DNA of 64,000 nucleotides from a candidate division BRC1 bacterium ADurb.Bin183 (GTDB lineage: Bacteria; Sumerlaeota; Sumerlaeia; MWCT01). The DNA is taken from the NCBI GenBank assembly GCA_002070185.1, contig MWCT01000001.1, positions 267,110 through 331,109 of the forward strand, read 5' to 3'. Of the stretch, positions 23,354 through 64,000 are shown piece after piece. A model generated the notes under the pieces. It had not been told where the DNA came from, made no database searches, and saw only the letters and a list, made by a program, of their open reading frames with translations. How positions within the stretch are numbered: the first letter of the stretch is position 1; each line of letters opens with the position of its first letter. Both the position numbers and the translations under genes were made by a program.

Positions 23354-24379
<1,026 letters not shown>

Positions 24380-24507
24380 AATAAATTTTTCCCGCCCGCA
24401 AAGAGTCCATCGTTTTTGCCTTTAATATTCCGGTGCAGACGGGGGGCACAGGCGGCAGATGAACGGCGATTCGGAGCGCGATGCAACGTCCGCATCAAAT
24501 CGGCGGG

Positions 24508-47208: not shown

Positions 47209-47757
47209 ATGCGCAATCCATTTTGTATAAAAATCGTATTTGTTCTCGCTTTATTGATGTTATTCTCTTTTGGTTTTGCACAGACGGAGTCCGATAAACC
47301 AACGCCTAAAATCTTCAGCACATGGAACGGTTTCATGGAGCCCGACCGCTGCGCCTCCGCATGGGCAATCAAAAAATTTGCCGAAAAGGATGCCGTGTTC
47401 AAAATCTACCCTGTGCAAACGACCGCCATGGATGGTGTCTCTTTTGATGTCCCACTGCCCGGCATCTATGCAAGGCAGCGCAATAAAACCATCATGGAGG
47501 CTATCCTTTCCCATCACAAGGTTGAGGACGCCGCCGCATGGCGCGTCGCCTCCATCATCAGGGACATCGAGCTCAATCGTTGGGATAGCCGCGCCACGCC
47601 GGAAGCCGCGGGAGTTGAAGCCGTTATCAATGGGCTGAATAAAATTTCCCGCGATGAAATGGATTGTCTTGAAAAAAGCATGTTAATATTTGATGCCTTA
47701 TACGCCTCATTCCAAAAGGAGGAAAAACCCGTTTCAGCGGAAAAATCCAAACGATGA
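47209..47757 (+). CDS. Small exported protein, possibly chromate-resistance-exported-protein-like (Chrome_Resist family)
   Basis: ATG at 47209 with RBS GAAGGGTG. Signal peptide; the segment WNGFMEPDRCASAWAIKKFAEKDAVFKIYP resembles the conserved core of that family as I recall it. Confidence 0.35.
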   Translation: MRNPFCIKIVFVLALLMLFSFGFAQTESDKPTPKIFSTWNGFMEPDRCASAWAIKKFAEKDAVFKIYPVQTTAMDGVSFDVPLPGIYARQRNKTIMEAILSHHKVEDAAAWRVASIIRDIELNRWDSRATPEAAGVEAVINGLNKISRDEMDCLEKSMLIFDALYASFQKEEKPVSAEKSKR

Positions 47758-48671
47758 AAATAATTTACCGGTTCATACTCCTTTGCCTTTTTGTTATCAT
47801 AGGCAGCCGCATCCAAGCCGATGAGGTCATCCTTTATTCCTCCTTTGAATCGGGCAATTGGGATATTTGGATGATTCACCCCGATAAAAGCAACGCACGA
47901 ATTTTAATCAATTCGCCGCTGGATGAAAAGGCTCCCGCGCTTTCGCCCGACGGCGCATATATCGCCTATCATGATAACAGAGGGAGCGTTCGTATTGCCG
48001 GTCTTGACGGCTCATCGAGCGATGTCCTTGCGCAGTCGCCGGGGCTGAACAGCTATCCCTGTTGGACGCCCGACGGCGCGGGGATTGTGTATTGTTCCCG
48101 CCCATCGCCGACAAAGGAAGCGGCAGGCATTTTTTATAACAAGATTCAGCCGGTCGCCGCCGCAACTCCTATAACGCTGGTTGAGCCGATGGAATCGAAT
48201 AATTTCCCCGCGCTTTCGCCGGACGGCAAGCGCCTTGTTTTTTCGCGTTTTCTGGCGCAGGAAAAACCGCTGAAGCTCCCGCGCGAGCCTCTTATTGAGG
48301 AACTCTACATCCTTGATATAACCAGCGGCAAAATATCGCAGATAACCAACCTGAAAAAAAATAGCGCGCACCCTCGATGGGCGCCCGACGGCGCAAAAAT
48401 AGTTTTCTCATCAAACGCCGCAGGCAGCTATGACCTGTGGCTTGTTGATATTGGAGAAAAAATATCGGAGCCGCGGCGGCTTACTGAGGATCCGGGATTT
48501 GAAGGCTTTCCCGCATGGTCACCCGACGGGGAGAAAATCGTCTTTATCTCGTCGCGCACTGGAAATATGGAACTGTGGATTCTGGATGTTTCAAGCGGAG
48601 GCTGGACGCAGCTCACTAATTCGGAAAAGAAAAGAGATTCGATGGAGCCCTGCTGGGGCAGGCTCCCTTAA
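47754..48671 (+). CDS. TolB-like WD40 (PD40) beta-propeller protein, secreted
   Basis: Start overlaps the upstream stop (ATGA). Repeated PD40 blades: ALSPDGAYIAY, PCWTPDGAGIVYCS, PALSPDGKRLVFSR, PRWAPDGAKIVFSS, PAWSPDGEKIVFISSR. Confidence 0.7.
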   Translation: MKIIYRFILLCLFVIIGSRIQADEVILYSSFESGNWDIWMIHPDKSNARILINSPLDEKAPALSPDGAYIAYHDNRGSVRIAGLDGSSSDVLAQSPGLNSYPCWTPDGAGIVYCSRPSPTKEAAGIFYNKIQPVAAATPITLVEPMESNNFPALSPDGKRLVFSRFLAQEKPLKLPREPLIEELYILDITSGKISQITNLKKNSAHPRWAPDGAKIVFSSNAAGSYDLWLVDIGEKISEPRRLTEDPGFEGFPAWSPDGEKIVFISSRTGNMELWILDVSSGGWTQLTNSEKKRDSMEPCWGRLP

Positions 48672-48695
48672 ATATAGCGGTTTGGAGGGTTTATC

Positions 48696-49865
48696 ATGAG
48701 GCGGCAAATTATTATTTTTACTCTCATTTTCGCCGCTGCGCTTTTGCAGACGGCGGGCGCTTTGGCGCAAATCGAAGCGGAGCCATCGGGATTTTTATCG
48801 AATGTTCAAGTTAGCTCCGATGAACTAAACATCGCCGCAAATGAAAAAACTCGCATCGAATTCAGATTAACACAATCCGCCAAAGTCACGCTCGTGATTT
48901 ACAACGCCGGACATGTTCCTGTTCGGACGCTGGCAACAGACCTGCCATGCGCGGCGGGAGTGAATGCGCTCGAATGGAACGGACGCGATGACGCCGGCGC
49001 GCCGGTTCCCGATGAGGCGTATTATTTTACCATCTCTGCGGTGGGCTCTCGGCAGCAGGTCGCCTCATTTGATCCCGCGCTCACATCCGGCGGCGAACGC
49101 ATCAAGTTCGGCGACGACAACCTGAAGTTTGACGCCGAGGCAGGCGGGATTGTTTATGAGCTCCCGTATGCCGCGCGAGTTCAAATCCGCATCGGCGTTA
49201 CAAACGGTCCTCTTTTGAAAACCCTTGTGCAATGGGCGCCAAGAAAAAAGGGGCGCCATTGCGAGCCGTGGGATCGCAAAGACGCCAGCGGTAGTATCAC
49301 GTTGACTGAGTTGAAAAATTTACGCATTCTGGGACGCGCCATGGCGCTGCCCGAAAAAAGCATCATCGTCAAAGGCGGCGGCGCGGCAAGCGCATCAACC
49401 GAACCCGTTACGCAGGACACGGCATTGCGCAGAACCGCCGTGGATGCCTCTCTGGCAAAAAGGGCGCGCCCCATCGAACCCGCCGCATGGACGCCTTTCG
49501 GCAAAAACACAGACCCTGTTTTTTCGCTCTCGCTGAAATCGGATAAGAACGCCGTTGATACTAAATCCGCGCCCCCATCATCCGAAAAAGGCGTCGCCGT
49601 TCGCGGAGAAACGGCATTCGAAATCGCCCTTGATGACGCCGCGCGCATGGCTCTTATGGAGCAGCGCTTTGAGATAGTATTTTTCGTTGATTATTCCCTT
49701 ATAGGAGAAGTGGAGCAGGGCTACTCGCCCTATACTTGGGTTTGGGACTCGACATCTGTTGCGGATGGACAGCATGTGATAACATTCAACGTTTCCGGTA
49801 TGAACGATCAGATAGGCGCCCAGTCTCTGATTGTTGATGTGCAAAACGGCATCGCTGAAAAGTGA
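48696..49865 (+). CDS. Secreted protein with FlgD-Ig-like beta-sandwich domain(s)
   Basis: Signal peptide; VTLVIYNAGHVPVRTLA...LEWNGRDDAGAPVPDEAYYFTISA resembles the FlgD immunoglobulin-like domain pattern. Confidence 0.4.
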   Translation: MRRQIIIFTLIFAAALLQTAGALAQIEAEPSGFLSNVQVSSDELNIAANEKTRIEFRLTQSAKVTLVIYNAGHVPVRTLATDLPCAAGVNALEWNGRDDAGAPVPDEAYYFTISAVGSRQQVASFDPALTSGGERIKFGDDNLKFDAEAGGIVYELPYAARVQIRIGVTNGPLLKTLVQWAPRKKGRHCEPWDRKDASGSITLTELKNLRILGRAMALPEKSIIVKGGGAASASTEPVTQDTALRRTAVDASLAKRARPIEPAAWTPFGKNTDPVFSLSLKSDKNAVDTKSAPPSSEKGVAVRGETAFEIALDDAARMALMEQRFEIVFFVDYSLIGEVEQGYSPYTWVWDSTSVADGQHVITFNVSGMNDQIGAQSLIVDVQNGIAEK

Positions 49866-49868
49866 GGT

Positions 49869-50420
49869 TTGGTTATGAAACAAAAACGCATCTTCATTTT
49901 ATGCGCCATGAGTTTGGGAATTCTTGCGCCGCTTTTTGCGGGCGATATCGGACTGCGGGGCGAGCTCAACGGCATCGGCGCAGAGTTTTCGCTGCATGTT
50001 TACCTCCAAAACGTTTATGATATTCATGGGCTTGCCTTTGATTTGGTCTATACCACGACGAGCCTTCAATTGAAAGACAGAGACGGCAATCTCGGCAATG
50101 GGGCGCAGCCTGTTATTCAGGAGTGGGGCGTCTTGAGCGAGGGCAATAAAGCGACCGTTCTTATGGAAGGCGCGCTGGAGATGGAACGCGCCGGACGCCT
50201 TGTTATGGGGGCAACGCGAACAGGCTCTCTTGCCGGCGTGGACATTGCCGGACAGAATTCCATCTTAAGCGTGGCAATGATTCTCTTGAAAAATCCGCCG
50301 ACTGCGCCTGTTCTTCAAAATATATATGCGGAGGATCACTGGGGCAATCCCATAGAGTTGAACATTCTGCCGACAGAACTTTATAATCTGCCGCCTATGA
50401 GCCTTTGGCTTTTGCGATAA
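49869..50420 (+). CDS. Small secreted protein, possible cohesin-like beta-sandwich
   Basis: 183 aa with signal peptide. The segment EFSLHVYLQNVYDIHGLAFDLVYTTTSLQL loosely fits the cohesin-domain pattern (V.V......I....F.L.YD...L). Weak, recognition only. Confidence 0.3.
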   Translation: MVMKQKRIFILCAMSLGILAPLFAGDIGLRGELNGIGAEFSLHVYLQNVYDIHGLAFDLVYTTTSLQLKDRDGNLGNGAQPVIQEWGVLSEGNKATVLMEGALEMERAGRLVMGATRTGSLAGVDIAGQNSILSVAMILLKNPPTAPVLQNIYAEDHWGNPIELNILPTELYNLPPMSLWLLR

Positions 50421-50441
50421 ATCATAAAAGGGTGGTTCGCC

Positions 50442-51449
50442 ATGAAATTGAAAAGTTTTTTATTGTTTCTTGTGTTTTTGCCGCTTGTGGGATGCAAGGA
50501 CGGAGCAAAGGGAAATTATGTTACCGCCTATACCGCCCACGACCAGATTTATTCCGAGCCGGTTTTTCAACTTTTCACGGAAAAGACCGGCATCGAGGTG
50601 CGGGCGGTTTATGACACGGAGGCGGTCAAGACCGCCGGTCTGGTGGCGCGTCTGATGGCGGAGGAAAAATCCCCGCAGTGCGACGTCTTTTGGAATAATG
50701 AAATCATTCGCACCATCGCCCTTAAAAAGAAAGGGATGCTGCAGCGTTACCAATCGCCGGAGGCGGCGATGTATCCGTCCGAATATCGCGACTCGGATGG
50801 TTTTTGGACCGGGTTTGGCGGCAGGGCGCGCGTGTTTATCTACAACAAGAATTTGATTAAGGATACTTCGGAGCTGCCCAATTCTATCTTTGCGCTCAAA
50901 GACCCCGCTTGGAAAGGGAAAACTGCCATCGGCAAGCCGCTCTTCGGCACAACGGCAACACATGCCGCTTTCCTTTTTGCCAAAATGGGTTCCTCCAATG
51001 CGAAACAATTTTTATTGGATATGAAAAAAAATGAAGTCATCGTAACAGCGGGCAACGCTATGGTCAGGGACATGGTCGCGCACGGGCGCGTGCCGTTGGG
51101 GCTGACGGACACCGATGATGTAAACGGCGCCATCGAGGACGGTTTTCCTGTGGATATGATTTACCCCGATTCTGACGCCGATAAAACGCTGGTTATTCCA
51201 AACACCGTTTCGCTTATCAAAGGCGCGCCGCATCCCGAAAACGGCAAACGGCTGATAGATTTTCTCCTCTCCCGAGAGACGGAGGAATTTCTAAATAGAA
51301 ATCGCGCGGCGCAGATTCCGCTTCGCACAGACGCAACATCCAATGCCCGCATTCCGGCGCTTAAAGACATCCCCTATGAGCATGTGGACTGGGAAAAGGT
51401 TGCGGACGCTCTGGATGAAAGCACGGAGTTTATTCAAAAAGAGTTTTAA
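50442..51449 (+). CDS. ABC transporter periplasmic substrate-binding lipoprotein (FbpA/iron(III)-type family)
   Basis: Lipoprotein signal (LVGCKDG); length and pattern typical of a type-2 periplasmic binding protein of the Fe3+/thiamine/polyamine cluster. Confidence 0.6.
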   Translation: MKLKSFLLFLVFLPLVGCKDGAKGNYVTAYTAHDQIYSEPVFQLFTEKTGIEVRAVYDTEAVKTAGLVARLMAEEKSPQCDVFWNNEIIRTIALKKKGMLQRYQSPEAAMYPSEYRDSDGFWTGFGGRARVFIYNKNLIKDTSELPNSIFALKDPAWKGKTAIGKPLFGTTATHAAFLFAKMGSSNAKQFLLDMKKNEVIVTAGNAMVRDMVAHGRVPLGLTDTDDVNGAIEDGFPVDMIYPDSDADKTLVIPNTVSLIKGAPHPENGKRLIDFLLSRETEEFLNRNRAAQIPLRTDATSNARIPALKDIPYEHVDWEKVADALDESTEFIQKEF

Positions 51450-53113
51450 TGAAAGAACAGATTACAATGCCCATGATTAGATGCGGCACAAAATGCGGCA
51501 AAGCCGAAAAAGGTTTTACCCGCTGGCAGCTGCGTGAGGCGGTTTTTCTTATTTTTGCCGTTCCTTTTTTACTGCCGCTTTTTGACCTTTTTATGGCATG
51601 GGGAGATATGGGGGCGCTGTGGAAAAGCCCCGCGGGCGGCGTTCGCCTTTTCAAAATTATGGGAAATAGCGCGCTTTTGAGTCTTTGCTGCGGGTTGGTT
51701 GCGGTGTGTCTGGGATGTCCAGCAGGAATTCTGGCGGCTGTATCGGGAGAAAGAATCCGCCTTGCCATCGGCGCGTCCAGTCTCATGCTCTTTGTCATTC
51801 CGTCCAACGTGCTTGTTGTGGGTCTTCTCACGCTTGCTTATTATATTCCGGCGCTGGATGTGTTTTTATATTCATTTATCGGCGCGGCGTTGATTCAGGG
51901 CTGGGCGCTGAGTCCGCTTGTCTTTTTCCCCGTTTACATGGCAACGCGCTCTTTCCCTCGCGAGTGGAACGATATGGGGCTGCTCGATTCCGGGCGCAGC
52001 GGCTTGATGCTGCGATTATGGTTTCCGCTGGCAGCCGTCCCCGCCTTGATGGGGGGCGGTCTGGCGATTCTTTTGAGTTATGGGGATTTTGTGATACCGG
52101 ATATTTTATTTTCGCGCAATCCACGATTCGGGATGGTTTTTTCAACGGAGATTCAGGCGGCGTTTGCGGGATTTTTTGATCTGGAGCGGGCGCGCAGGTT
52201 GGGCGCGCTTTTTATTCCTTTTCCGATTGCAATTGCCGCAGGGCTCCTTTTTTTGTTGCCCAGATTTCATGAGACGAGGGGGTTGGATGCTCATACGGTC
52301 GCGGAAGCCGCCGCCCCAAAGCCGCATCGGGAACGTTTTGATTTTGTAAAATTTGCCGTTTCGATTTTTCCTTTTATGTCATCTTTGCTGTTGATGATTT
52401 CGCTCGCGGCTCTGGCTTGGATGCTTCTGCGGGATGCCTCCGCATGGAAGGCGGTGTGGCGCTCCGCAAGCGATGAATTGTTTGGGTCGCTGATTGTCTG
52501 CGGGCTTTGCGCCGCGTTCATACTCTTTGCTGGAATTTTGATGAGTTCGCTTTTATTGATGAGACGCAACGGGAGGCGGGGCGCGCCATCGCCCGGTCTT
52601 GCCGTCTTCGGTTTTTCCGCCTTGCTTTCTTATTTTCTACCCGGCTCAATTGCAGGGGTTTTTCTGCTTAGAATCTTCAGCGTCCCGCATTTTGCCGATT
52701 TGAGAAGCACGGTCATTCCGCTTATTGCGCTTTATTTTTTGAGGGGGGCGGGGCTTGCGCTGCCGATTATTTTGATTTCCGCCGCGGCGGTTCCAGAGGA
52801 AAGGATTGCGCTTGCGCAAACGGACGGCTGCAGGTTTTGGGGACGGATTCGCCATGTGCTGGCTCCTTCGTGTTGGCGTTTTTGGCTTGCCGCGTTCATG
52901 TTGGTGTTCCCCGTTCTGATGGGCGAAACCGCAGGCGCCATGATTGTAAGCCCGCCGGGTTACACGCCGCTTTCTGTCCGCATCCAGACGGTGATGCATT
53001 ACGGACCGGGCGCTTATGTTTCAGTTTTGTGTTTGATGAGCGCCGCCTCCGCGCTGTCGGTTGTGGCGGCGGCGGGATATGTTTTTCGTAAAGGATTATT
53101 TATCACCGAATAA
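51449..53113 (+). CDS. ABC transporter permease with two fused permease domains (FbpB-like)
   Basis: 554 aa, ~12 TM helices in two homologous halves, as in iron(III) ABC permeases. Start overlaps the binding-protein stop by 1 nt (TAATG). No ATPase gene is adjacent on either side. Confidence 0.65.
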   Translation: MKEQITMPMIRCGTKCGKAEKGFTRWQLREAVFLIFAVPFLLPLFDLFMAWGDMGALWKSPAGGVRLFKIMGNSALLSLCCGLVAVCLGCPAGILAAVSGERIRLAIGASSLMLFVIPSNVLVVGLLTLAYYIPALDVFLYSFIGAALIQGWALSPLVFFPVYMATRSFPREWNDMGLLDSGRSGLMLRLWFPLAAVPALMGGGLAILLSYGDFVIPDILFSRNPRFGMVFSTEIQAAFAGFFDLERARRLGALFIPFPIAIAAGLLFLLPRFHETRGLDAHTVAEAAAPKPHRERFDFVKFAVSIFPFMSSLLLMISLAALAWMLLRDASAWKAVWRSASDELFGSLIVCGLCAAFILFAGILMSSLLLMRRNGRRGAPSPGLAVFGFSALLSYFLPGSIAGVFLLRIFSVPHFADLRSTVIPLIALYFLRGAGLALPIILISAAAVPEERIALAQTDGCRFWGRIRHVLAPSCWRFWLAAFMLVFPVLMGETAGAMIVSPPGYTPLSVRIQTVMHYGPGAYVSVLCLMSAASALSVVAAAGYVFRKGLFITE

Positions 53114-53132: not shown

Positions 53133-56100
53133 ATGAAAACCAAGTTGTTCCTTTCTGTGTATATGCTTTTTTTCTGCGCTTTGTTCCTGTCGGTTTATGC
53201 GCTGCCGCCGGATATAGACCAAACCGACCGCGTGGACGGCAAGGATTTAATCCGCTTTTCCCGCGCATGGCAGAAAAAAACGGGCGAGGAGGGATGGAAC
53301 GAGCGCGCCGACCTTGATTATTCGGGGCTTATTGACGAGGAGGATTATAAAATTCTCCAGCTTTATTTCGGATTGCAGGGGCGCGTCCGCCGTGTCTGGA
53401 TTTCGCAGGGAACGCCCAACACCATCATGCGTTTTGCCGATGATGGCGAACTCATCGGCAGTTTTAGCGGCGCGGGCAATCCCCGTTTGTTCGCCCTGTT
53501 CCCGGGCGACGGTTCCCTCTGGTCTCTCAATACATCGCAGGGCAAATTGTTTCATTATGATAGCAACGGACGGCTTCTTTCCACCGTGAGCGGCTTCAAT
53601 ACTCCAGCGGCGCTTTCCGTGAATGAAAAAACCGGACAGTGCTGGGTTGCCAACACTGTCAGAAAAAATGTCGTCCTTATTTCGCCGGATGTCCCCGCTG
53701 ACTATAATATCGCTTCGCAAACAGGATTTCATAAAACCATCGGCGGCTTCAATGAGCCCGTCTCCGTTTCTGTGGATTCGACGGACGGTTCCTGCTGGGT
53801 TGCCGACGCCAAAGTAAGCCAAATCATCAAACTGGACGCAAACGGAGATAAAGAGCTTTTGCGGATTGGCGGCTTTCCCAACGCCAGCCTTGTCATCGTA
53901 AATCCCGTTGACGGCGCCGTCTGGGTTGAAACAAATGATTACTTCATTAGACAAACCGTCAAATGTCTTACCAGCGGCGTCAGAATAAAAGCATTCGATT
54001 CAGGGGCGCTTCTTTGCGTCAGCCGCAATGATGGCTCCGTTCTTGTTCAAGGAACAACGTATAGCGAGGTCTGCCGCATCAGCGCAAATGGCGAAGAGAT
54101 TTTCCGCGTTGGAGGCTTCGGCTGGATTATAGCTGCCTTTGCCGATCCGGTCAGCGGCTGCTTCTGGCTGCTGGATCAAGAAAAAAATGAAGTGGTGAAA
54201 CTCTCCGCAGGCGGGGCGACGCTCCTGCGTATAGGCGGCGTTTTTGGGCAGCTTTCATCTGGCGCGATAGATGACGGCGAACCGACTTTTTCATCCTATC
54301 CCCGCGCCGCTGTTCAGGCGTCGCCGCTAAAAGGCGGCGTCCCTCTCAAAGTCTTTTTTGCCGCTCAAATAGAAAATGCGGGCGGCGCGATTTTAAATTA
54401 TCAGTGGGATTTTGACGGCGACGGTCTCTTTGACTGGATGTCTCAGACAACCGGCGATGTTAGCCACACATATGAAACACCGGGCATCTATAATCCCATT
54501 TTCCGCGCGGTGAATGAAAAGGGGCTCGCGGCGGTCAACACGTCCCTCCTCATAACAGCGGGGGAGCCGGAGATTCGCCTGGACGCAAGCCCCGCAAGCG
54601 GCGCGGCGCCTCTAAAGATCGCATTGAATACAATTCTGCTGAACATTCCCAGAACTGCTGTTCATGCCATTTTGTATGATTTGGATGGCGACGGCAATTT
54701 TGATGCGCTTTACGAAGGCAAAGATATATTGAAAGGCTTAAGTGTTTCTCACACATACCGCAAAATTGGCGACTTCTATCCGATGGCTAAAGTTGTCTTG
54801 CAGGAGGGCGGCGAGGTTTGCGCGTCCGCAACCGTGGAGGTTCATTCTCCCGCCCCAACCGTCAAGGCATCCGCCAAACCCGCGCAGGGCTACATGCCGC
54901 TTTCTGTGGAGCTTTCCGCGCAGGCAAAAGATGATGACGGCAGCGTTGTTTTATATGAATGGGATTTTGATAATGACGGCATATTCGACTGGCGCAGCAC
55001 AACGCAATCCAACGTCTTGAATGTGTATCGCCAAAAAGGCAATTTCACGGCATTGGTGCGCGTGACTGATAATGACGGCTTACAGGCGTCCGACGTTGTC
55101 CCGATTCGGGTCTTAAACAAACCGCCGGATGTGACGGCGGATGCCGAACCGCGCAAGGGAAACGTCCCGCTGTTGGTCAATCTCAAGGGACAGGCGACCG
55201 ATGCCGATGGGAGCGTTGTCCTGTATGAATGGTCGCCGAAGGGCGACGGCAATTTCATCTGGCAATCCCCCTCCGCCGGTCTGACCTCATATACCTATAC
55301 TGAGCCGGGGATTTATCATGCAACCTTTCGCGCCACAGATGACGAAGGCTCCAGCGCCACAAAAACCGTTGCCATTGAAGTGCGGAATGCGGGCAAGCCT
55401 TTTGCTTTGCCGGATGCCGCGCCCCGCAGCGGCGCCGCCCCGCTCAATGTCAATTTCACCGCCGCCGGTTCCGATGACGATGGCTCGATTGTCCTTTATG
55501 AATGGTTTTTTGAACTGCCCTACGAGCGCCTTGACCAGTTGTGGAAACGCCCCCTTGCCGATGATTATTCCTCGCCGGATTCTTATTGCGGCATCGCCTA
55601 CAACAAAGCGACCGGACATCTCATCTTTGCCTCTAACGGGGGCAAAAATTTTCCCGCTGGATTTTACATCATTGACCCGGCAACCGGTCGGACCATCGGC
55701 AAACTTTCGGAAAACGGTGTCTCATTTATGTCATTATCCTCTGCGCCGAGACGCAAGGCAATAGGCATTGCGCCCAGCGGGAAGATTTTCCATCAGGACG
55801 GCAACGGCGATATTGTGATGTGGGCGAACGAGGGCGCCAAGCCTGTCGTTGTTTATGACGACACGGAAAATGATGAATTCTCGCACACCATTGATGTTAT
55901 CGAACCGGCGGGCGTCGTGTATGTTTATACCTGCCGGTATGCGACGAAAGAGATAAAGATTTTTCGGCTCGATGGCGCGCTTCTTACGCATGTGAATACC
56001 GTTTCATGCAGCCCCGCCGGAAACACCGTCGGCACCGGCATCGCAGTTTCCGCCGATGGAAAGACTTTATACACCTCGTATAAATCTCTTGTTCTTTCGA

Positions 56101-59100
56101 AATGGGTCAGCCCGACCGGACCTTTGGGAACTTACACCCGCGACGCAACTTTTGCCCCGACTCAAACCGCGCCGGAATCCATCGCGCTGGGTTATGCGGA
56201 GTCTTTTCCGGAAAAGCCGACCGCGCTTCTTGGAACTCTGCATGATTCCCCGGCTGATAAGATATTCTTCTTTGATGCCGCCGGCGTAGAGTCGAGAAGT
56301 CCCGCCTTGATTGAAGGCGCGGGTTACCGTTCTTACGCATCGGATATTGATGTGGATTGGGAGAATCGCCGTATTTTTTACGGTTTTGGTGTGAACGGAA
56401 TCGGCTGCATTCATTTTTCGCCCGGCGCTTACTGGTCGTCTCCAACCCCCGGCACAATCGCGCACCAATATAACGTCTGGGGCGTTTATCATCCCATGCT
56501 CCGCGTGAGGGATAATTCCGGCTTCACGGACGAAACCGCTCTGGAGATTAACGTTCTTTCCCCTCCGTCTGCGAAAATTATTTTCCCTGAAAATAATGTG
56601 ATATCTTATCGCAACAACCTCATATTCCGCGGTTCGGGCGAGGACAAGGACGGACAGATTGTCAAATATGAATGGGACTTTGACGGCGACGGGACTTGGG
56701 ACTGGGCATCGGATAAAGAGGAGAATGCGACGTGGGCGGATGCCGATTTTGCCGAACACAACGCCTTTTTTCGCGTGACCGATTCGGACGGGCTGCAGGA
56801 TACTGTCTCGACTCATTACAAGATTGTTTCCAGCGCGCCAAAAGTTGCCGCTCAGGCGGAGCCCGCCCGAGGCAACGTCCCTGTAACCGTCACGTTCAAT
56901 GGAACCGCAACAGACGCCGATGGATGGATTCTTGATTATATGTGGGACTTTGATGGCGACGGGATTTTTGACTGGTTCAATGGAGAGCCGCGCGGCGCGG
57001 TGATTGCATGCACAAGCGAATCGCCCAATTCAAAGGCGGATAAGCTCATTGACGGCAGCCTTGCCACCAACAACTATTGGTTGAGCGCCGCTAACCCCGC
57101 CTTTCCCATTGATATCACCTTCAAACTCAAAGGCGACACCAGCCAGCAGATAGACCGAATCATACTCAGCACGAAAAACCCCATATCCGCCAACTATCGA
57201 GTAAAGGACTTTGAAGCGCATATAACCGATGAGGAAACCGCTGAAAATTTCGTCCCTTGGATTCGCGGAACAATGAACAGCGTTGCAGAAGAACAGACCT
57301 TTACATCTATCACATTAAGCGCAAAATATGTCAAACTGCGCATCCTTTCCGTCGAGAAAGGAACATCTTATGCGTCGCTGGGCGAATTTGAGGTTTATGC
57401 AGGCAAGAGAAATGTTCTCACCAATCCGGGCGCAAAAGCGACTTACATTTTCAATACACCCGGAATATACAATGCCGAACTTCGCGTCATTGATAACGAC
57501 GGTTTCGCCGGCAGCGATGTGATTCCTATCCAAGTCAATGCCAGCAATTCCCCAGCGGCGTCCATTATCGCCATGGAGCCTTCGCCGGGATGGCGAACCG
57601 AACCCATCCTTTTCATGGGTATCGGCGAGGACGCCAACGGTCAGGTGGTTAAATATGAATGGGATTTGGAGGGCGACGGGACTTACGATTTGGAGCAGAC
57701 CAAATCCGGCAGCGTTGTTTCATGGACAAGCCAATATAACACCACCACCTACGCCGCGAAAAATATTATTGACGGTCTGGCGGAGAATAGCAAGGGCTGG
57801 CGTTCCAACAGCGTCAACTTCCCGCAGGAACTTGTCATGCAGCTTGCCGATGCCGAAGGGGGCTCGCCGGTCAATCTGGCGTGTGTCGCCATCAATGTTG
57901 CGATAGGAAATCCCAATAACAATTGCGCAAAGGATTTCACTGTTTCCGTTTCCTCAACCGCCGCCGACTCCGGCTTTTCAGATGTCGGTTCATTTCAGGC
58001 GATGCGGAGCAAGGGATATCAGATTTTCACTTTTGCGCCCGCGCCGGCTCGCTGGCTGAAAATCTCCGTCACATCAAATTACGGCGGCGGATTCGTGGAG
58101 ATTGCTGAAATCTGCGCAGCGGGCAAGCCGCCTGCGCGCAACCAGCTCGCGCCCGGCGGCGCCTTTGCCCAGTATAATTTCAGCGGAAATTACAAGCCGA
58201 CCTTTCGCGTTACAGATAATGATGGTTTGATGGATTGGGCATCGCAAAAACTCGTCATCAATTCCGAGTCGCAAAAACTCGGCAGCGTCTGGGTGGCGGT
58301 TACAGGGGCGCATACGGTGAAACGGCTATCGCCTATGGGCGATGAACTCTGGTCGTTTGAATCGCTCCGTTTTCCATGGTCTGTCGCCGCCAATGTCAAC
58401 ACAAAGGATTGCTGGATTGCCAATACGCAGGGGCATAATGTTGTTAAACTCGATCCGCAGGGGGCGGAGAAGCTCCGCATTGCCGGATACAACAACCTTA
58501 AAAAAGTCGAGGTGAATCCGGTGAACGGCGTCTGCTGGGTCAGCGACACTTCCAATCATCAAGTGGTGCGATTGAGCGCGGATGGGACTCAGGAGGCGCG
58601 CATCAGCGGGTTTAGCGGTCCCACCGGGCTATCGGTATATCAGGCGGATGGCTCCTGTTGGGTGGCGGATGTGTATAATAATGGGCGCGTTGTCAAACTT
58701 GCGGCGAACACCCCTGATGGGTATGATATCAGCACGCAGACGGGTTTTCATATTTTCCGCACGGGATTCAGGGAGCCGCAAGCCCTCGCGGTCAATCAGA
58801 TGGATGGAACGTGTGTTGTGGCGGATAATAAGAACAATCAGGTCGTCCTTTTAAATGAGGAGGCAAGTGAGGAAATATGGCGCATCAGCGGCATCGGCAG
58901 CCCCATCGGCATCAGCGTCAATCCCCGAGATGGCAATATCTGGGTTGCCGACCAGTCAAGCCACCGCGTTGTGCGGCTTGCTCCCGACGGAAATGAAGTG
59001 TTTCGCGTCAGCGGTTTTAATCATCCAGGCGCTATCAGCGTTAATAACCTTGATGGAACATGCTGGGTGGCGGACACGGATAACAATCGGGTGGTAAAAC

Positions 59101-62100
59101 TTGCGCCTAATGGAAATATCATTTTGACCCAAACCGGAAACACCCAGCCGCGCGGCATTTATGTGGATTCAGGCGAGGGGGCGTTCAACCCCGCGCCGAC
59201 ATTCAAGGCAATTGCCGGAGCCTCCGCGCTGGAAGGAGCCGTGCCTCTTGTCGTCTCGTTCACCGCCGCATCGCAGGGCGGCGGAAATATCATACGTTAC
59301 GAGTGGGATTTTGAAGGCGACGGCGTTTTCGATTACAGCTCCCCAGCCACCGGCGATGTGGAACATGTGTATGAAGATTTCGGCATCTTCAATGCTGTGT
59401 TGAGAATAACCGATGAAAATCATCAGGTGGCTTATGATTATCACTTGATTCTCAAAGCACAGGGCATAAGGGCGACCGCAATCGCCATCCCCACTGAGGG
59501 TTTTGCTCCCCTGAGCGTGGTTTTTTCCCATGCGGGATTTTCGCAAAACCCAATAACAAAATATGAATGGGATTTCAACGGCGATGGAAAAATTGACAGA
59601 CAGACATCCGATGCCGCCGCCAAACTTACATATACCTATAATCGGGCGGGGACATGGACGGCGTTTCTGACTGTGACAGACTCAGCTGGCAAAACCGCCC
59701 AAACTGCCGTTGTGTTGAACATCGCTCCAAACCCGCCTGACGTGCACAATGCGTTGGTGTCAACGCGAATCGTTTTGGGACGGACGCTTGTCAGTTTTGA
59801 CGCCACAAGGGCGTTTGACTATGATGGCAGCATTGTCCTTTATGAATGGGACTATGACGGCGACGGCATTTATGATTGGCATTCAAAAACGCCTCTTATT
59901 GCGGAATATGTTTATCCCGCGCCCGGAATATACCGCCCCATATTCCGCGCCACAGATAATGACGGGTTGTCTTCAACTAAACAATTTGAATTAACCATTC
60001 CTAATTCCGCGCCAGTTGCTAAAGCCAATGCAGAGCCAGCCATCGGACGCGCCCCGCTCACCGTTCAATTCTCCGGCGATTGCGCCGATTATGATGGCAG
60101 CATCGCCCTTTATGAATGGGATTTCAACGGCGACGAGATTTACGATTGGTCGTCCAATCTGACGGCGACAGTCAGCCATTCCTACAACACGCCGGCGGAA
60201 TACACGGCAACGCTTCGCGTCACGGATAATCTGGGCGCGACCGCAACCAGCAGCGTTCCCATTTCTGTCAAGAATACAAACGACCCCATTGTGGCGCTCA
60301 ACGGCGCGCCGCTGGAAGGCGTCTTTCCGCTGCTTGTGAATTTTAACGCCGTTCCCCAAAACCCCGCAAATCCCATCGTGCGCTATGAATGGGATTTCGG
60401 CGAGGCAAAATGGACAGAGGCGGACGGCTATTTGCGACAGATGCTCTGGCTCGGCGCGTTCAAGGCAACAGGCGGCAATGATGTGACAAGCCACATGCCT
60501 GATATTGAAAAAGGCAACCCCTCTGATAAAGACACCTTTGCCGGTCGTGTCTGGTCGAAAACAAATTCATCCTCAAGCGGCATTTTCAATCTTGTGCCAA
60601 AATTCGGCGGCAAAAAGAATTTCGCTTATAGTCTTGTTTATCTTTACTCGAAAGAGGCGCAGCGCGTCCGATTTAGTTACGGCGCCAAAGACTCTGCTCG
60701 ATTCTGGATTAATGAAAGCCTTGTGGAAACAAGGGTTTTTTCCGGCTCATTTGCCTTTGACCAATTTCAGTTTGAGGCGGACCTAAAGGCGGGATGGAAC
60801 AAGGTTCTTGTTGCTGTTTCCCATGAAACGAGTTCATGGGCATTCGCCTGTCGAATCACCGACCTTGCCAACGCGCCGATTCGTTTTTTGCATTCCGTTG
60901 TGGAGCCTTATTCGGCTTCGCCCTTTGTGCAAAACGGCGCCGCCACCGCCTCGTTTGGTTATCGGCATCCGGGGGTGTATAATGTCAAAGTAACAGCTTA
61001 TGATTCTGCGGCAAAGCAGGCTTCCGCTGAACTGTCTGTCAGGGTTTTGAATAACCCCATACCGGTTGCCCTGCCAAGGGTGCATCCCCTGAGCGGACCT
61101 GCCCCTCTTTCGTGCCGATTCGAAACAAATGCAAAGGTTTCGACGGGTGTGATTTACTATTATACATGGGATCTTGGGGACGGTCGAACTTTTGACGACT
61201 GCGGCAATATTCCGCGAAATTTCAGCCATACGTATTATTTCCCCGGAGTTTATCGCGCGACGCTTTTTGTTAAGGATGACGCCGGTATAATCGGGCAGGG
61301 CAGCGTTGATATCACCGTTTTTGATGCCGAAAAAATCACTGCAGAAATAGAGGCGTCGCCTATTTCCGGCAAAGCGCCGCTCGACGTTCAATTCATCGGG
61401 CGAGTCAAAAGCATTTCTGGCATGGTTCGGCTCTTTGAATGGGATTTCAATGGCGATGGTATTTATGACCTTAACGGACCTGACGCCGCTGAACCGCTAT
61501 TCAAATTCACAACACCCGGACAATACACCGTGAAACTGCGCGTTACGGACGACCGCGGCAATAAAGCAACCGCGGAAAAGACGATTTATGCGGGCGTGTC
61601 CGCCGGACCTCAAATTCAAATCACGGCGAATCCCGAAAGCGGCGCCGCCTCGTGTATAATCGCATTTGAGGCGGATGTGAAACCGGGCGATAATTCAGAT
61701 ATTAACATCGAATGGGATTTTGACGGAAATGGAACTTATGATGAAATTACCTCGCTTGGAGCGGACGGAAAATCCGCAACTTCCCATATCTACACGCTGC
61801 CCGGGTTGTATAATGTCCGGGCTCGCGCCAAAGACGGACTGGGGCGCATCGGCGAAACCGCCCTTTCGCTGCCCATCGCCTTTTCTATCAACGCATGGCG
61901 CAGCGCCGAGGTTTTGTCCCCGCTTCTCAATCAGACTATGAGCGTGCAGTCTGTCATCGGCTCGCCTGCGCGGATAACGGTCTGGATTGAAAATGCAAAA
62001 GGCGAGGTTGTGAAATATCTGGCGCAGGATGCAGATCGCGCCGCCGGATACTACTCCGATGTCTGGGACGGATGCGACAGCGGCGGGAATTATGCGCCTC

Positions 62101-62831
62101 ATGGGACGTATTATTTTTATCTGCGTTATTCCGCGGGCGATATAACGGGGCTCATTGACCACGAAAAACCCATGACTCCGATAAAAGGTTATGAGTATGG
62201 CGACAACCCCACATTCACCTATCCCTCGCGCTTCCATGCTCTTGAAGACCGCCCCTTCTATCTTTCATACACCATGAATGAGTTTTCCGATGTGTTCTCC
62301 TTTATCAGCGATGTAGGCGCACGCAATCCCATTGACCCGTGGGTTGCGCCGCTTTCCATAAAGGAGGCGCGCCCTGCCGGTAATTATATTGATATCTGGG
62401 ACGGCACAAACGGACGAAAAAGATTCATTCCGACCCTATCTGAAGCAGCCGTTATCGGCGTCTGGTCATGGAAGCTTCCGGATAATGCCGTCCTTCTTTC
62501 GATGCGCCCGCAAATCTCCGGCGTCACCAAAGACCCCGATTATCTTTACCCTCTGCCCAGCCCCTATAAAGATACGGATGGATTGACCATACAATATACA
62601 ATCTCGTGCCCTGCGTATGTCCAGATTGATATCGAGTCGGATGACGGCGCGCTTGTGAAACGCATAGAGCAGACGCACGATACCGCCGGAGCAAAAAGCG
62701 CATTTTGGGACGGGTTTAATACAGATGGGACGCCGCCATTGCCCGGTGTCTATAAAATTCATTTATCAGCGCTCGATAGCTACGGCAATGAGTCGCTGCA
62801 TGTTTATGATCTCTTCAGGATTCAGTATTAG
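53133..62831 (+). CDS. Giant secreted multidomain surface protein (3232 aa): dockerin-like N-terminus, NHL-type beta-propellers, ~13 PKD domains, two discoidin (F5/8 type C)-like domains, a lectin-like domain and C-terminal FlgD-Ig-like domains
   Basis: ATG at 53133 with GAGGGGA RBS and signal peptide MKTKLFLSVYMLFFCALFLSVYA. Ca-binding-loop-like DIDQTDRVDGKD...DLDYSGLIDEEDY; NHL blades (DGSCWVAD..N.VVKL); recurrent YEWDFDGDG PKD cores; KLIDGSLATNNYW and NIIDGLAENSKGWRS discoidin-type starts. Confidence 0.8.
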   Translation: MKTKLFLSVYMLFFCALFLSVYALPPDIDQTDRVDGKDLIRFSRAWQKKTGEEGWNERADLDYSGLIDEEDYKILQLYFGLQGRVRRVWISQGTPNTIMRFADDGELIGSFSGAGNPRLFALFPGDGSLWSLNTSQGKLFHYDSNGRLLSTVSGFNTPAALSVNEKTGQCWVANTVRKNVVLISPDVPADYNIASQTGFHKTIGGFNEPVSVSVDSTDGSCWVADAKVSQIIKLDANGDKELLRIGGFPNASLVIVNPVDGAVWVETNDYFIRQTVKCLTSGVRIKAFDSGALLCVSRNDGSVLVQGTTYSEVCRISANGEEIFRVGGFGWIIAAFADPVSGCFWLLDQEKNEVVKLSAGGATLLRIGGVFGQLSSGAIDDGEPTFSSYPRAAVQASPLKGGVPLKVFFAAQIENAGGAILNYQWDFDGDGLFDWMSQTTGDVSHTYETPGIYNPIFRAVNEKGLAAVNTSLLITAGEPEIRLDASPASGAAPLKIALNTILLNIPRTAVHAILYDLDGDGNFDALYEGKDILKGLSVSHTYRKIGDFYPMAKVVLQEGGEVCASATVEVHSPAPTVKASAKPAQGYMPLSVELSAQAKDDDGSVVLYEWDFDNDGIFDWRSTTQSNVLNVYRQKGNFTALVRVTDNDGLQASDVVPIRVLNKPPDVTADAEPRKGNVPLLVNLKGQATDADGSVVLYEWSPKGDGNFIWQSPSAGLTSYTYTEPGIYHATFRATDDEGSSATKTVAIEVRNAGKPFALPDAAPRSGAAPLNVNFTAAGSDDDGSIVLYEWFFELPYERLDQLWKRPLADDYSSPDSYCGIAYNKATGHLIFASNGGKNFPAGFYIIDPATGRTIGKLSENGVSFMSLSSAPRRKAIGIAPSGKIFHQDGNGDIVMWANEGAKPVVVYDDTENDEFSHTIDVIEPAGVVYVYTCRYATKEIKIFRLDGALLTHVNTVSCSPAGNTVGTGIAVSADGKTLYTSYKSLVLSKWVSPTGPLGTYTRDATFAPTQTAPESIALGYAESFPEKPTALLGTLHDSPADKIFFFDAAGVESRSPALIEGAGYRSYASDIDVDWENRRIFYGFGVNGIGCIHFSPGAYWSSPTPGTIAHQYNVWGVYHPMLRVRDNSGFTDETALEINVLSPPSAKIIFPENNVISYRNNLIFRGSGEDKDGQIVKYEWDFDGDGTWDWASDKEENATWADADFAEHNAFFRVTDSDGLQDTVSTHYKIVSSAPKVAAQAEPARGNVPVTVTFNGTATDADGWILDYMWDFDGDGIFDWFNGEPRGAVIACTSESPNSKADKLIDGSLATNNYWLSAANPAFPIDITFKLKGDTSQQIDRIILSTKNPISANYRVKDFEAHITDEETAENFVPWIRGTMNSVAEEQTFTSITLSAKYVKLRILSVEKGTSYASLGEFEVYAGKRNVLTNPGAKATYIFNTPGIYNAELRVIDNDGFAGSDVIPIQVNASNSPAASIIAMEPSPGWRTEPILFMGIGEDANGQVVKYEWDLEGDGTYDLEQTKSGSVVSWTSQYNTTTYAAKNIIDGLAENSKGWRSNSVNFPQELVMQLADAEGGSPVNLACVAINVAIGNPNNNCAKDFTVSVSSTAADSGFSDVGSFQAMRSKGYQIFTFAPAPARWLKISVTSNYGGGFVEIAEICAAGKPPARNQLAPGGAFAQYNFSGNYKPTFRVTDNDGLMDWASQKLVINSESQKLGSVWVAVTGAHTVKRLSPMGDELWSFESLRFPWSVAANVNTKDCWIANTQGHNVVKLDPQGAEKLRIAGYNNLKKVEVNPVNGVCWVSDTSNHQVVRLSADGTQEARISGFSGPTGLSVYQADGSCWVADVYNNGRVVKLAANTPDGYDISTQTGFHIFRTGFREPQALAVNQMDGTCVVADNKNNQVVLLNEEASEEIWRISGIGSPIGISVNPRDGNIWVADQSSHRVVRLAPDGNEVFRVSGFNHPGAISVNNLDGTCWVADTDNNRVVKLAPNGNIILTQTGNTQPRGIYVDSGEGAFNPAPTFKAIAGASALEGAVPLVVSFTAASQGGGNIIRYEWDFEGDGVFDYSSPATGDVEHVYEDFGIFNAVLRITDENHQVAYDYHLILKAQGIRATAIAIPTEGFAPLSVVFSHAGFSQNPITKYEWDFNGDGKIDRQTSDAAAKLTYTYNRAGTWTAFLTVTDSAGKTAQTAVVLNIAPNPPDVHNALVSTRIVLGRTLVSFDATRAFDYDGSIVLYEWDYDGDGIYDWHSKTPLIAEYVYPAPGIYRPIFRATDNDGLSSTKQFELTIPNSAPVAKANAEPAIGRAPLTVQFSGDCADYDGSIALYEWDFNGDEIYDWSSNLTATVSHSYNTPAEYTATLRVTDNLGATATSSVPISVKNTNDPIVALNGAPLEGVFPLLVNFNAVPQNPANPIVRYEWDFGEAKWTEADGYLRQMLWLGAFKATGGNDVTSHMPDIEKGNPSDKDTFAGRVWSKTNSSSSGIFNLVPKFGGKKNFAYSLVYLYSKEAQRVRFSYGAKDSARFWINESLVETRVFSGSFAFDQFQFEADLKAGWNKVLVAVSHETSSWAFACRITDLANAPIRFLHSVVEPYSASPFVQNGAATASFGYRHPGVYNVKVTAYDSAAKQASAELSVRVLNNPIPVALPRVHPLSGPAPLSCRFETNAKVSTGVIYYYTWDLGDGRTFDDCGNIPRNFSHTYYFPGVYRATLFVKDDAGIIGQGSVDITVFDAEKITAEIEASPISGKAPLDVQFIGRVKSISGMVRLFEWDFNGDGIYDLNGPDAAEPLFKFTTPGQYTVKLRVTDDRGNKATAEKTIYAGVSAGPQIQITANPESGAASCIIAFEADVKPGDNSDINIEWDFDGNGTYDEITSLGADGKSATSHIYTLPGLYNVRARAKDGLGRIGETALSLPIAFSINAWRSAEVLSPLLNQTMSVQSVIGSPARITVWIENAKGEVVKYLAQDADRAAGYYSDVWDGCDSGGNYAPHGTYYFYLRYSAGDITGLIDHEKPMTPIKGYEYGDNPTFTYPSRFHALEDRPFYLSYTMNEFSDVFSFISDVGARNPIDPWVAPLSIKEARPAGNYIDIWDGTNGRKRFIPTLSEAAVIGVWSWKLPDNAVLLSMRPQISGVTKDPDYLYPLPSPYKDTDGLTIQYTISCPAYVQIDIESDDGALVKRIEQTHDTAGAKSAFWDGFNTDGTPPLPGVYKIHLSALDSYGNESLHVYDLFRIQY

Positions 62832-62858
62832 GAGAAACCGCCTAAAAGGAGGCATTCG

Positions 62859-64000
62859 ATGATTCGTTGGAGTTTTTATCAAGCGCTATGTGCGGCGATG
62901 GCGGTCTTGTTGTTGCTTGCCATCGCGCCGCGCGCATTTTCCGTGGACCATCCGTGGGACACTTGGCATGTCTATTTCCCGAGCGTACCGGATATTCCCG
63001 AGCCGGATAACGACAGGGATGATGACAAGCAAGAGGATGCCGACCCTATTCTTTCGGCGGAGGGCAATTATGTTTATCCCCACACAGATTTGTGGATAAA
63101 AGGACGCAATCCCGCGCTCAAAATTCGCCGTGTCTATGACTCTATGTATGCCTGGTATTTGGGACCCTTTGGCTATGGATGGAGTTTTATCTACGACATC
63201 ACATTCACCAAAGTTTACCGACCTATGATGGCGGGCGGCGGCAGAGCGGCAGAGGAGTCGGATAAACAGCCGGATACAAAAACAGCCTCTTTCTGGGGCG
63301 GGCTGGGCGGTGTCATCATACGTATGCCGGAGGGCAAATCTATCTTTTTCAAATGGAATGGCGGCGTCTTCGAACCTCCTGCGGGCTCCAAATACACCCT
63401 CGACAACGAACTGGTTCTTAAACACAAGGATGGAATTTATTACAAATTTCAGGGCAGCGATGATGTTCGCAAGGTCAGCTTCATCGGCAACGCCTATGGC
63501 GAGGCTTTGACGCTCACCTATGACAACAGCGGAAAACTGATAAAAGTTGCCGACCGTTTCAACCGCTTTATCAACATCTCCTATAATCTGAATAATAAAA
63601 TTTCCTCCGTCACGGATTTCACCGGACGCTCCTGCTCTTATGACTATGATGATGAGGGCAACCTTATCGCCTACACCAATCCCTGCGGCTATAAAACGTT
63701 CTATGCCTATAACGCCGAGCATAGAATAATCAGCGTCTCCAACCAATCCGGACAGGTCTGGCTCTCCAATACATACAATCAGTGGGGCAAGGTCATCCAG
63801 CAAATCCACCTCGGCGGTGTTTACACCTTTGAATATGATACCATGAACAAACGGACAACCGTCACGTATCCCAACGGCGGACAGTGGATAAAAAAATGGG
63901 ATGATTCCCGGCGCAATGTGGAAAGCACAGACCCGTATGGTTTCAAGACAATTCGGGAGTGGGATGATTTTTCCAATGCCGCAATTATCACAAATAAAAG
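62859..64000 (+). CDS. RHS/YD-repeat protein, 5' part (runs off the window end)
   Basis: Not in the supplied track because it has no stop in the window. ATG at 62859 follows AAAGGAGG. Hand translation gives MIRWSFYQALCAAMAVLLLLAIAPRAFS then YD-repeat units (YDYDDEGNLIAYTNPCGYKTFYAYNAEHRIISV, YTFEYDTMNKRTTVTYPNGG), open to nt 64000. Confidence 0.65.
   Translation, partial: MIRWSFYQALCAAMAVLLLLAIAPRAFSVDHPWDTWHVYFPSVPDIPEPDNDRDDDKQEDADPILSAEGNYVYPHTDLWIKGRNPALKIRRVYDSMYAWYLGPFGYGWSFIYDITFTKVYRPMMAGGGRAAEESDKQPDTKTASFWGGLGGVIIRMPEGKSIFFKWNGGVFEPPAGSKYTLDNELVLKHKDGIYYKFQGSDDVRKVSFIGNAYGEALTLTYDNSGKLIKVADRFNRFINISYNLNNKISSVTDFTGRSCSYDYDDEGNLIAYTNPCGYKTFYAYNAEHRIISVSNQSGQVWLSNTYNQWGKVIQQIHLGGVYTFEYDTMNKRTTVTYPNGGQWIKKWDDSRRNVESTDPYGFKTIREWDDFSNAAIITNK

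Follow-up and report, generated by a model that had tools for sequence, protein, structure and literature searches.

A predicted Sec-exported RHS protein with a conserved orphan tip, encoded beside a giant adhesin-like gene in a Sumerlaeota bacterium

We describe here a gene of the RHS/YD-repeat family from the candidate division BRC1 bacterium ADurb.Bin183 (Sumerlaeota), which directly follows a giant, adhesin-like gene and whose 5' part closes a 64,000-nucleotide stretch of contig MWCT01000001.1 (GenBank assembly GCA_002070185.1), referred to throughout as the window. The closest described systems, and the best matches to this protein in both sequence and fold, are the single-chain Rhs effectors of type VI secretion systems (T6SS), among them RhsA of P. 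protegens, Rhs1/Tre23 of P. laumondii, Tse5 of P. aeruginosa and the S. bongori Rhs core (PDB 7Q97, 7PQ5, 8CP6 and 8QJB-D). Like them, the protein combines an N-terminal plug of the DUF6531 family, a single-chain YD cocoon, a core that closes with a PxxxxDPxG end and a tip of about 140 residues, and this tip may be likened to the ~16-kDa tip of Tse5, a small, hydrophobic, membrane-active pore former carried within an Rhs shell (PMC10684867). The literature describes an aspartate dyad, DPxG-x18/19-DPxG, of which each Asp is needed for C-terminal cleavage and hence for toxicity (PMC8765631, PMC10684867, PMC8636562); the mutants concerned are D1324N and D1346N of RhsA (PMC8765631), D1141A and D1164A of Tse5 (PMC10684867) and D1338N of Rhs1 (PMC8636562). 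Unlike the T6SS effectors, the protein reported here has a predicted Sec signal peptide rather than a PAAR, prePAAR or VgrG-binding region and no T6SS genes nearby; the first Asp of its dyad is a Glu, the dyad spacer is 27 residues as against 18-19, the tip is not polymorphic and no immunity gene is adjacent.

Other systems resemble it in part. WapA/WapI of Bacillus subtilis shares the signal peptide, the RHS repeats, the C-terminal tip and T6SS-independent secretion, whereas the wall-binding domains, the tRNase/nuclease domain and the downstream WapI-like gene of that system are all lacking here. The bacterial teneurin-like proteins (TLPs; PMC13018210, PDB 9IFO/9PT5) share a Sec-targeted YD shell with a C-terminal domain of ~15 kDa, which in BiTLP is hydrophobic and membrane-active, permeabilising membranes and proving toxic only when exported, and TLPs have been linked with N-terminal adhesion domains (PMC13018210). 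A TLP, however, unites an FN-plug, an NHL propeller and the YD shell in one chain, and the group has polymorphic C-terminal domains and immunity proteins (PMC13018210), whereas in the present case DUF6531 serves as the plug and RHS domains are the only others in the RHS protein, the NHL propellers and adhesion domains belong to a different protein encoded upstream, and the tip is a conserved one. The Tc (ABC) toxins (TcA with TcB-TcC; PDB 4O9X, 4IGL) likewise encode a very large partner beside an RHS cocoon, the C-terminal cargo of which is released by an aspartyl autoprotease, yet our giant protein has no TcA domains, the single-chain cocoon lacks the TcB beta-propeller, the tip is strongly acidic and the similarity of fold is lower (query-normalised TM score of up to 0.48). 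The glycine-zipper toxins, namely EsxX, the ionophoric C-terminal toxins of CdiA and Tse4 (PMC12744356, PMC11630599, PMC12169545), of which depolarising examples are known from type VII secretion and contact-dependent inhibition systems (PMC12744356, PMC11630599), share a small, hydrophobic, Gly/Ala-rich segment of recurring small-xxx-small spacing at the C-terminus of a delivery protein; they have dedicated immunity proteins, no sequence homology to them was detected, and the two flanking CX3CX3C motifs and the long acidic linker set the present tip apart. By its defining features, the RHS protein is neither a T6SS Rhs effector, nor WapA, nor a Tc BC component, nor a TLP.

That the gene encodes an RHS protein is already stated in the NCBI annotation, and the Sumerlaeota genome paper holds nothing on secretion or RHS. 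What is new is an orphan but conserved tip, a missing immunity gene and a conserved partnership with the giant gene. We propose, with a probability that we would put at roughly 0.55, that the locus encodes a Sec-exported, T6SS-independent Rhs capsule which partners the giant surface protein and carries a peptide that is probably membrane-active.

The complete RHS gene and its predicted fold

The frame opened by the ATG at 62859 is free of stop codons for 380 codons, up to the edge of the window (62859-64000, + strand), and a first-pass annotation of the window had read it as an RHS/YD-repeat gene whose toxin and immunity parts would lie beyond that edge. An exact 45-mer from the window end had no match in GTDB species-representative genomes; in the ENA it was matched on a metagenome contig 906,613 bp long (L001; 1.1 kb recovered). 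Exact-sequence look-up of the giant protein led to a second locus, L002 (NCBI GCA_022704465.1, contig JAKJGI010000001.1), which agrees with window positions 43133-64000 with 0 mismatches over 20,868 nt and from which the region beyond the edge, correctly anticipated, was recovered. There the RHS gene is a single uninterrupted open reading frame (ORF) of 1,257 codons (L002 19727-23500), equivalent to window positions 62859-66632, and the extension supplies an RHS core domain, a PxxxxDPxG-type end and a C-terminal tip, here of 138 residues, for which the first-pass annotation had proposed to look. Neither of the outcomes that it named as refuting its reading, a downstream sequence without core or tip or an interrupted ORF, was encountered. 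The exact RHS protein is present on 23 public contigs, and the exact giant protein is also found on public contigs. The public annotation of the RHS protein reads 'RHS repeat-associated core domain-containing protein [Candidatus Sumerlaeota bacterium]', while in the older BRC1 bin ADurb.Bin183 it carries the Prokka-type name 'tRNA nuclease WapA precursor'; we set the latter aside as an automatic name transfer, there being no tRNase domain and no WapI-like gene. A word-index homologue search gave no match for the 380-residue fragment or for the tip alignment, but the same search missed the 97%-identical protein P0001 and its negatives are therefore uninformative.

Read from the sequence, residues 1-28 (62859-62942, + strand) form a predicted Sec signal peptide, MIRWSFYQALCAAMAVLLLLAIAPRAFS/VD, where '/' is the putative cleavage site; by eye its end reads …LLLLAIAPRAFS/VD, and an equivalent signal peptide, ...STYAGA/FDNPWDTHH, is predicted for the orthologue P0156. 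Directly behind the cleavage site stands the motif VDHPWDTWH (window 62943-62969, residues 29-37), with counterparts in FDNPWDTHH (residues 28-36 of P0156), HDPWSHG (residues 32-38 of the relative P0035) and, more loosely, AWDDH (in the relative P0037); such a motif might serve to sort or to anchor DUF6531-RHS proteins that are exported by Sec. The DUF6531 domain, which is the N-terminal plug of single-chain Rhs cocoons, occupies residues 62-116 (63042-63206, + strand), starts with DADPILSAEG and is matched in Pfam with E-values of 2e-10 in the 380-residue fragment and 1e-9 in the full protein. A Gly/charged loop, MAGGGRAAEESDKQPDTKTASFW (window 63228-63296, residues 124-146), is absent from P0156 and variable among the 97%-identical strains; it has low confidence in the structural model described below (model residues 67-89) and represents a lineage-specific insertion in the N-terminal plug region.

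The first YD/RHS repeats begin at about residue 202 (63462-64000, + strand), and the shell runs on to about residue 1035, outside the window. The fragment in the window already scores far above chance, with Pfam RHS_repeat at an E-value of 8e-15 (55 bits against a cutoff of 22), NCBIfam YD_repeat_2x (TIGR01643) at 5e-13 and an RHS_core stretch at residues 202-358, which bears out its first reading as an RHS gene. In the full protein RHS_repeat reaches 1e-74 in 14 stretches and TIGR01643 2e-53 in 10, and the RHS-associated core domain TIGR03696 covers residues 1036-1118 (68.1 bits against a cutoff of 32.5, E-value 7e-19). The core ends in NPQLFRDPSGY, the last position of which is Y in 19 of 117 homologues and L in 40. 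Pfam gives no PAAR or VgrG match in the RHS protein, and there are no T6SS genes among the called genes of L002 or of L003, the orthologous locus described below.

An AlphaFold2 (AF2) model was made of residues 58-1257 of the 97%-identical variant, with 30 homologues in the input. Its mean predicted local distance difference test score (pLDDT) is 79.4 and its predicted TM score (pTM) 0.75; it is confident over model residues 6-1028, the DUF6531 region included, and forms an unbroken beta-hairpin spiral. The best Foldseek matches are the single-chain Rhs cocoons of T6SS effectors (E-values of 1e-69 to 1e-66), with target-normalised TM scores of up to 0.75 for the S. bongori Rhs core, while a bacterial teneurin-like protein, the teneurins and TcB-TcC are more distant. 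The model thus predicts a closed, single-chain beta-cocoon with an N-terminal plug, and the protein belongs structurally to the Rhs/YD cocoon family, with one defining feature, the Asp dyad, only partly present.

The C-terminal tip, the autoprotease dyad and the downstream flank

The tip comprises the 138 residues (1120-1257) that follow NPQLFRDPSGY. A segment behind the cleavage motif (residues 1120-1135) leads into an acidic linker (~1136-1162), then into a first CX3CX3C motif (C1163/C1167/C1171), C1195 within the conserved stretch ECIEGAADFAAGG, a Gly/Ala-rich segment (1198-1236) that holds the zipper G1205-x3-G1209-x3-G1213-x3-G1217 as well as C1214, and a second CX3CX3C motif (C1243/C1247/C1251); the hydrophobic, Gly/Ala-rich stretch is thus flanked on both sides by CX3CX3C (L002 23213-23479, RHS residues 1163-1251). 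The tip contains 25 acidic (D+E) and 11 basic (K+R) residues, and its Kyte-Doolittle hydropathy, averaged over 19 residues, peaks at 1.5. A membrane toxin would be compatible with its glycine zipper and hydrophobic core. A model of the tip on its own, of low confidence (pLDDT 45.8), has the two CX3CX3C motifs on one helix each (at tip residues 37-67 and 105-134), which would be compatible with a disulfide-stapled hairpin. By spacing and composition alone, we take the Cys pattern to be reminiscent of Cys-stapled hairpin peptides such as the sactipeptide thuricin CD; no radical-SAM gene lies near the RHS gene.

The tip has no match in Pfam, NCBIfam, PADLOC or the PDB sequences, PADLOC giving no defence-system match either, and an exhaustive phmmer search of 1.84e9 cluster representatives found it only in its own cluster and in P0156 (E-value 5.5e-20). 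A third match, P0157, was discarded because it is a repetitive Ig-type protein that matched through low complexity, and hhalign indicated no homology to the CX3C-flanked hydrophobic tip of the relative P0035 (probability 0.4%). P0156, an orthologue of 1,245 residues, is collinear all the way from the signal peptide to the tip; its overall identity is 44% and that of its tip 39-41%. All 8 Cys of the tip are kept, and the zipper persists as small-xxx-small, position 1209 being Ala. Closer to home, the members of the 90% cluster differ at 0-4 of the 138 tip residues, the strain variants being 97% identical overall. Compared with strain L011, dN/dS is 0.15 for the shell, from 59 synonymous and 32 non-synonymous changes, the tip has a value of 0.21, from 5 and 4 such changes, the GC content is level across the core/tip junction, and neither the window nor the public loci examined contain orphan tip or immunity cassettes. 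On these sequence comparisons the tip is an orphan family that is conserved at the rate of the shell and under purifying selection. The pattern of a polymorphic toxin, in which the tip varies on a constant core, does not emerge, so that the variable C-terminal toxin anticipated by the first-pass annotation was not borne out: the tip does not vary across strains and lineages, and no toxin domain was recognised in it by comparison with Pfam, NCBIfam, PADLOC or the PDB.

The dyad that would be expected to release the tip is altered. The core end reads …GRFMQE-EPIP-(27 residues)-DPSGY, that is E1084-PIP-x27-D1115-PSG, and as judged from this reading the DPxG-x18/19-DPxG arrangement is not present. 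The first position is Glu (codon GAG) where 114 of 117 aligned homologues have Asp, and Glu occurs there only in this cluster and in two degenerate sequences; the 27-residue spacer is longer than those of the 40 other homologues that were scored by pattern (17-23 residues). Both the second Asp and the PxxxxDPxGY site are preserved. AF2 confidence drops sharply right after E1084. P0156 shares the 27-residue spacer and retains the Asp (QEDPVM) together with the same tip, and loss of the dyad is therefore not a feature of the family. In this species the tip may be released slowly, conditionally or not at all, because of the Glu and the long spacer.

No immunity gene adjoins the RHS gene in either lineage. 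In L002 the RHS stop codon, at 23500, is followed by a convergent GAF-GGDEF-EAL gene (23580-25484), the 3' end of which lies 80 nt on, and there is no immunity-type ORF on the same strand, the sole + strand ORF having 38 codons and overlapping the GAF-GGDEF-EAL gene. In the second lineage, represented by L003 (JGI 3300010353) and L004 (GCA_029568655.1), no immunity-type ORF was found either; the downstream genes, a 43-residue ORF, a 412-residue ORF, a transglutaminase-core gene and an IS200-type transposase, are all convergent and unrelated to those of L002. The IS200-type Y1 transposase gene (L003/L004 16433-17413) lies ~2.7 kb past the orthologous RHS gene and is consistent with a rearranged downstream flank in that lineage. 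That the approach can detect such ORFs follows from the loci of the relatives P0035 and P0037 (L005 and L008), in which multi-transmembrane ORFs of 127 and 136 residues stand directly downstream on the same strand. The immunity gene that had been expected to follow the RHS gene is accordingly absent from its place, the next gene being convergent.

The giant gene and its neighbourhood

The partner gene occupies 53133-62831 (+ strand) and encodes 3,232 residues from the ATG at 53133, 19 nt after the stop codon of an ABC permease gene. A mechanical ORF list starts it at the TTG at 53061, whereas both the public gene call and the predicted signal peptide (MKTKLFLSVYMLFFCALFLSVYA/LPPD) start at the ATG. 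Behind the signal peptide the protein has two regions of NHL/SGL propellers, no fewer than 11 PKD domains and a pair of F5/8-type-C (discoidin) domains, with FlgD_ig domains at the C-terminus, and its description as a giant adhesin-like protein is a fair one. Its N-terminus (53133-53522) has a weak Dockerin_1 match (E-value 0.037). A cohesin reading of the 181-residue secreted protein encoded at 49869-50420, which is without a family match, was rejected as a likeness seen by eye without Pfam or PDB support.

The giant gene ends in the TAG at 62829-62831 and is separated from the RHS gene by a spacer of exactly the 27 nt first reported (62832-62858, + strand), which is identical in the strain variant L011 and in which a promoter/terminator scan found no terminator-like hairpin. 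The spacer carries AAGGAGG (62846-62852), 6 nt 5' of the ATG at 62859. Public gene calls disagree on the RHS start, some placing it at M1 (MIRW…, 1,257 residues; 62859) and others at M14 (MAVLL…, 1,244 residues; 62898), and we favour M1 because of this AAGGAGG and because the MIRW codons are kept in L011.

In L003/L004 the orthologous RHS gene, which encodes P0156 and is preceded by AAGGAG, begins 31 nt after a giant gene of 3,230 residues that is collinear with that of the window and 45% identical to it. The 276 nt upstream of the L003 giant gene contain no ORF where the window has the ABC permease, and because the flanks differ on both sides in the second lineage, the conserved unit is exactly the giant gene and the RHS gene. 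The conserved pairing, the short spacer and the lack of a terminator-like site support co-transcription and functional coupling of the two genes, which we infer from their arrangement. The co-expression suggested by the first-pass annotation is accordingly plausible, given the 27-nt gap with its ribosome-binding site and the recurrence of the pair with a 31-nt gap.

More distant RHS relatives (L010, L008 and L005) also follow large Ig-rich secreted proteins. Among these looser analogues, in L010 a gene of 2,032 residues with fn3, GEVED and CARDB domains overlaps the RHS start by 4 nt, and the RHS gene of L005 has a gene for a beta-helix/FlgD_ig protein upstream. The Omnitrophota locus L008 contains genes for a 2,498-residue Ig/FlgD_ig protein, a TolB-like PD40 protein, a FlgD_ig protein, the RHS protein, a substrate-binding protein (SBP), a permease and a ChrB_C protein. 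The corresponding genes of the window, all upstream of the giant gene, are ChrB_C (47335-47757), PD40/TolB-like (47754-48671), FlgD_ig (48696-49865), SBP (50442-51449) and the permease (51449-53113). Genes of L008 match those of the window (47335-53113 and the RHS gene) at 21-50% identity in a different order; over L008 1-24221 the identities are 34% for ChrB_C, 27% for PD40, 50% for SBP, 21% for the permease and 31% for the RHS homologue P0037, and the FlgD_ig protein of 374-389 residues is 30% identical over its full length. The shared genes may represent a larger conserved island, or a horizontally transferred one.

Proposed function of the pair

Taken as a Sec-exported Rhs capsule with a surface partner, the pair would operate as follows. 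The giant and RHS proteins would both be exported by Sec; the giant protein would lie on the surface and bind targets through its PKD, NHL and discoidin modules, and the tip, a cargo of acidic linker, two CX3CX3C helices and Gly/Ala zipper, would be enclosed in the Rhs capsule, which DUF6531 and the core domain would seal. On contact the tip would be released and inserted into a membrane, where the peptide might form pores or cause depolarisation in the manner of Tse5-CT, of the C-terminal domain of BiTLP or of glycine-zipper toxins. On this view the locus would function as an Rhs toxin capsule does, yet it is not built as a classical polymorphic toxin/immunity cassette and departs from two defining features of such cassettes, a tip that varies and an adjacent immunity gene.

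Several points weigh against this proposal. A self-made membrane toxin normally needs an immunity protein, and none is adjacent; the Glu in place of the catalytic Asp may, by analogy, abolish the cleavage that is required for toxicity in the Rhs toxins studied (PMC8765631, PMC10684867). Membrane activity of the tip is suggested by its composition, in which the hydropathy peak is borderline and the net charge is about -14, and in the full AF2 model the tip falls below a pLDDT of 50, so that its encapsulation is not supported by the model. The mechanism is weakest in three respects, namely the lack of an immunity function, the Glu of the dyad and the acidity of the tip. The pairing itself, with this tip, is known from two lineages only, alongside the looser analogues, and a profile scan of a genome collection, which used just two N-terminal peptide patterns, confirmed no further relatives or loci.

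The same evidence bears on the other explanations. In our view the gene is unlikely to encode a classical polymorphic toxin of the Rhs type that has its cognate immunity gene at another site in the genome, or whose producer lacks the receptor, and for which too few strains are available to reveal tip replacement. Every structural hallmark of the Rhs toxins is present, P0035 and P0037 have small multi-transmembrane ORFs right downstream, as expected for immunity proteins to membrane toxins, and the tip is known from just two lineages; against this, the next gene is convergent in both lineages with unrelated downstream regions, the tip diverges in step with the shell (39-41% as against 44%) under purifying selection, and there are neither orphan cassettes in the 64 kb and the loci examined nor a GC break at the core/tip junction. 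The absent immunity gene and non-polymorphic tip would also fit a non-toxic, teneurin-like structural or adhesion protein, left uncleaved by the exchange of its catalytic Asp for Glu and attaching cells to one another or to a substrate together with the giant adhesin, the Cys-rich tip being structural or metal-binding. E1084 stands where 114 of 117 homologues have Asp and where D-to-N or D-to-A exchange abolishes cleavage of RhsA and Tse5 (PMC8765631, PMC10684867), the teneurins are themselves uncleaved YD shells (PMC8765631), and the partner has the PKD, NHL and discoidin domains typical of adhesion. P0156, however, keeps the Asp with the same tip, the second Asp and the PxxxxDPxGY site are intact and a Glu may retain some activity, while the hydrophobic, glycine-zipper core is closer to toxins than to adhesion modules; we regard this explanation as quite improbable.

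It might also be that adjacency to the giant gene is incidental, the RHS protein working alone or with the more distant TolB-like, FlgD_ig and ABC-transporter genes that co-occur with an RHS gene in the Omnitrophota metagenome-assembled genome. In L008 two genes (PD40 and FlgD_ig) do separate the RHS gene from the giant gene, and the ChrB_C, PD40, FlgD_ig, SBP and permease set matches genes of the window at 21-50%. The direct adjacency of the pair in two lineages at 44-45% identity, with spacers of 27 and 31 nt, the lack of an ABC permease immediately upstream in L003 and the 4-nt overlap of a giant gene with the RHS start in L010 make this very unlikely. At the other extreme, the capsule proposed above could be part of something more specific, a delivery system of the Sumerlaeota that has not been described before, consists of two components, does without a T6SS and an immunity gene, and has looser counterparts in the Omnitrophota and in further uncultured phyla. 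In it the adhesin would dock on a foreign cell or surface and the capsule would then deliver a fixed, disulfide-stapled glycine-zipper peptide. Its target would be something that the producer lacks, for example in another domain of life or in a different type of envelope, which would explain why there is no immunity gene; we advance this as a speculation with little probability at present.

RHS proteins are usually read, automatically, as a polymorphic toxin with its immunity protein, and three expectations of that template fail here: there is no immunity gene next to it, the tip does not vary and the Asp dyad is altered. What stands in their place is a conserved partnership with a surface protein of ~3,200 residues and an orphan tip rich in Cys and Gly. 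If the pair is not a functional unit, the gene merely adds to the RHS genes of metagenome-assembled genomes. Should it be one, it would represent a simple, Sec-dependent way of using an Rhs capsule, in a phylum that is little known and is commonly present in anaerobic digesters, and the tip would add a new family of small membrane-active peptides.

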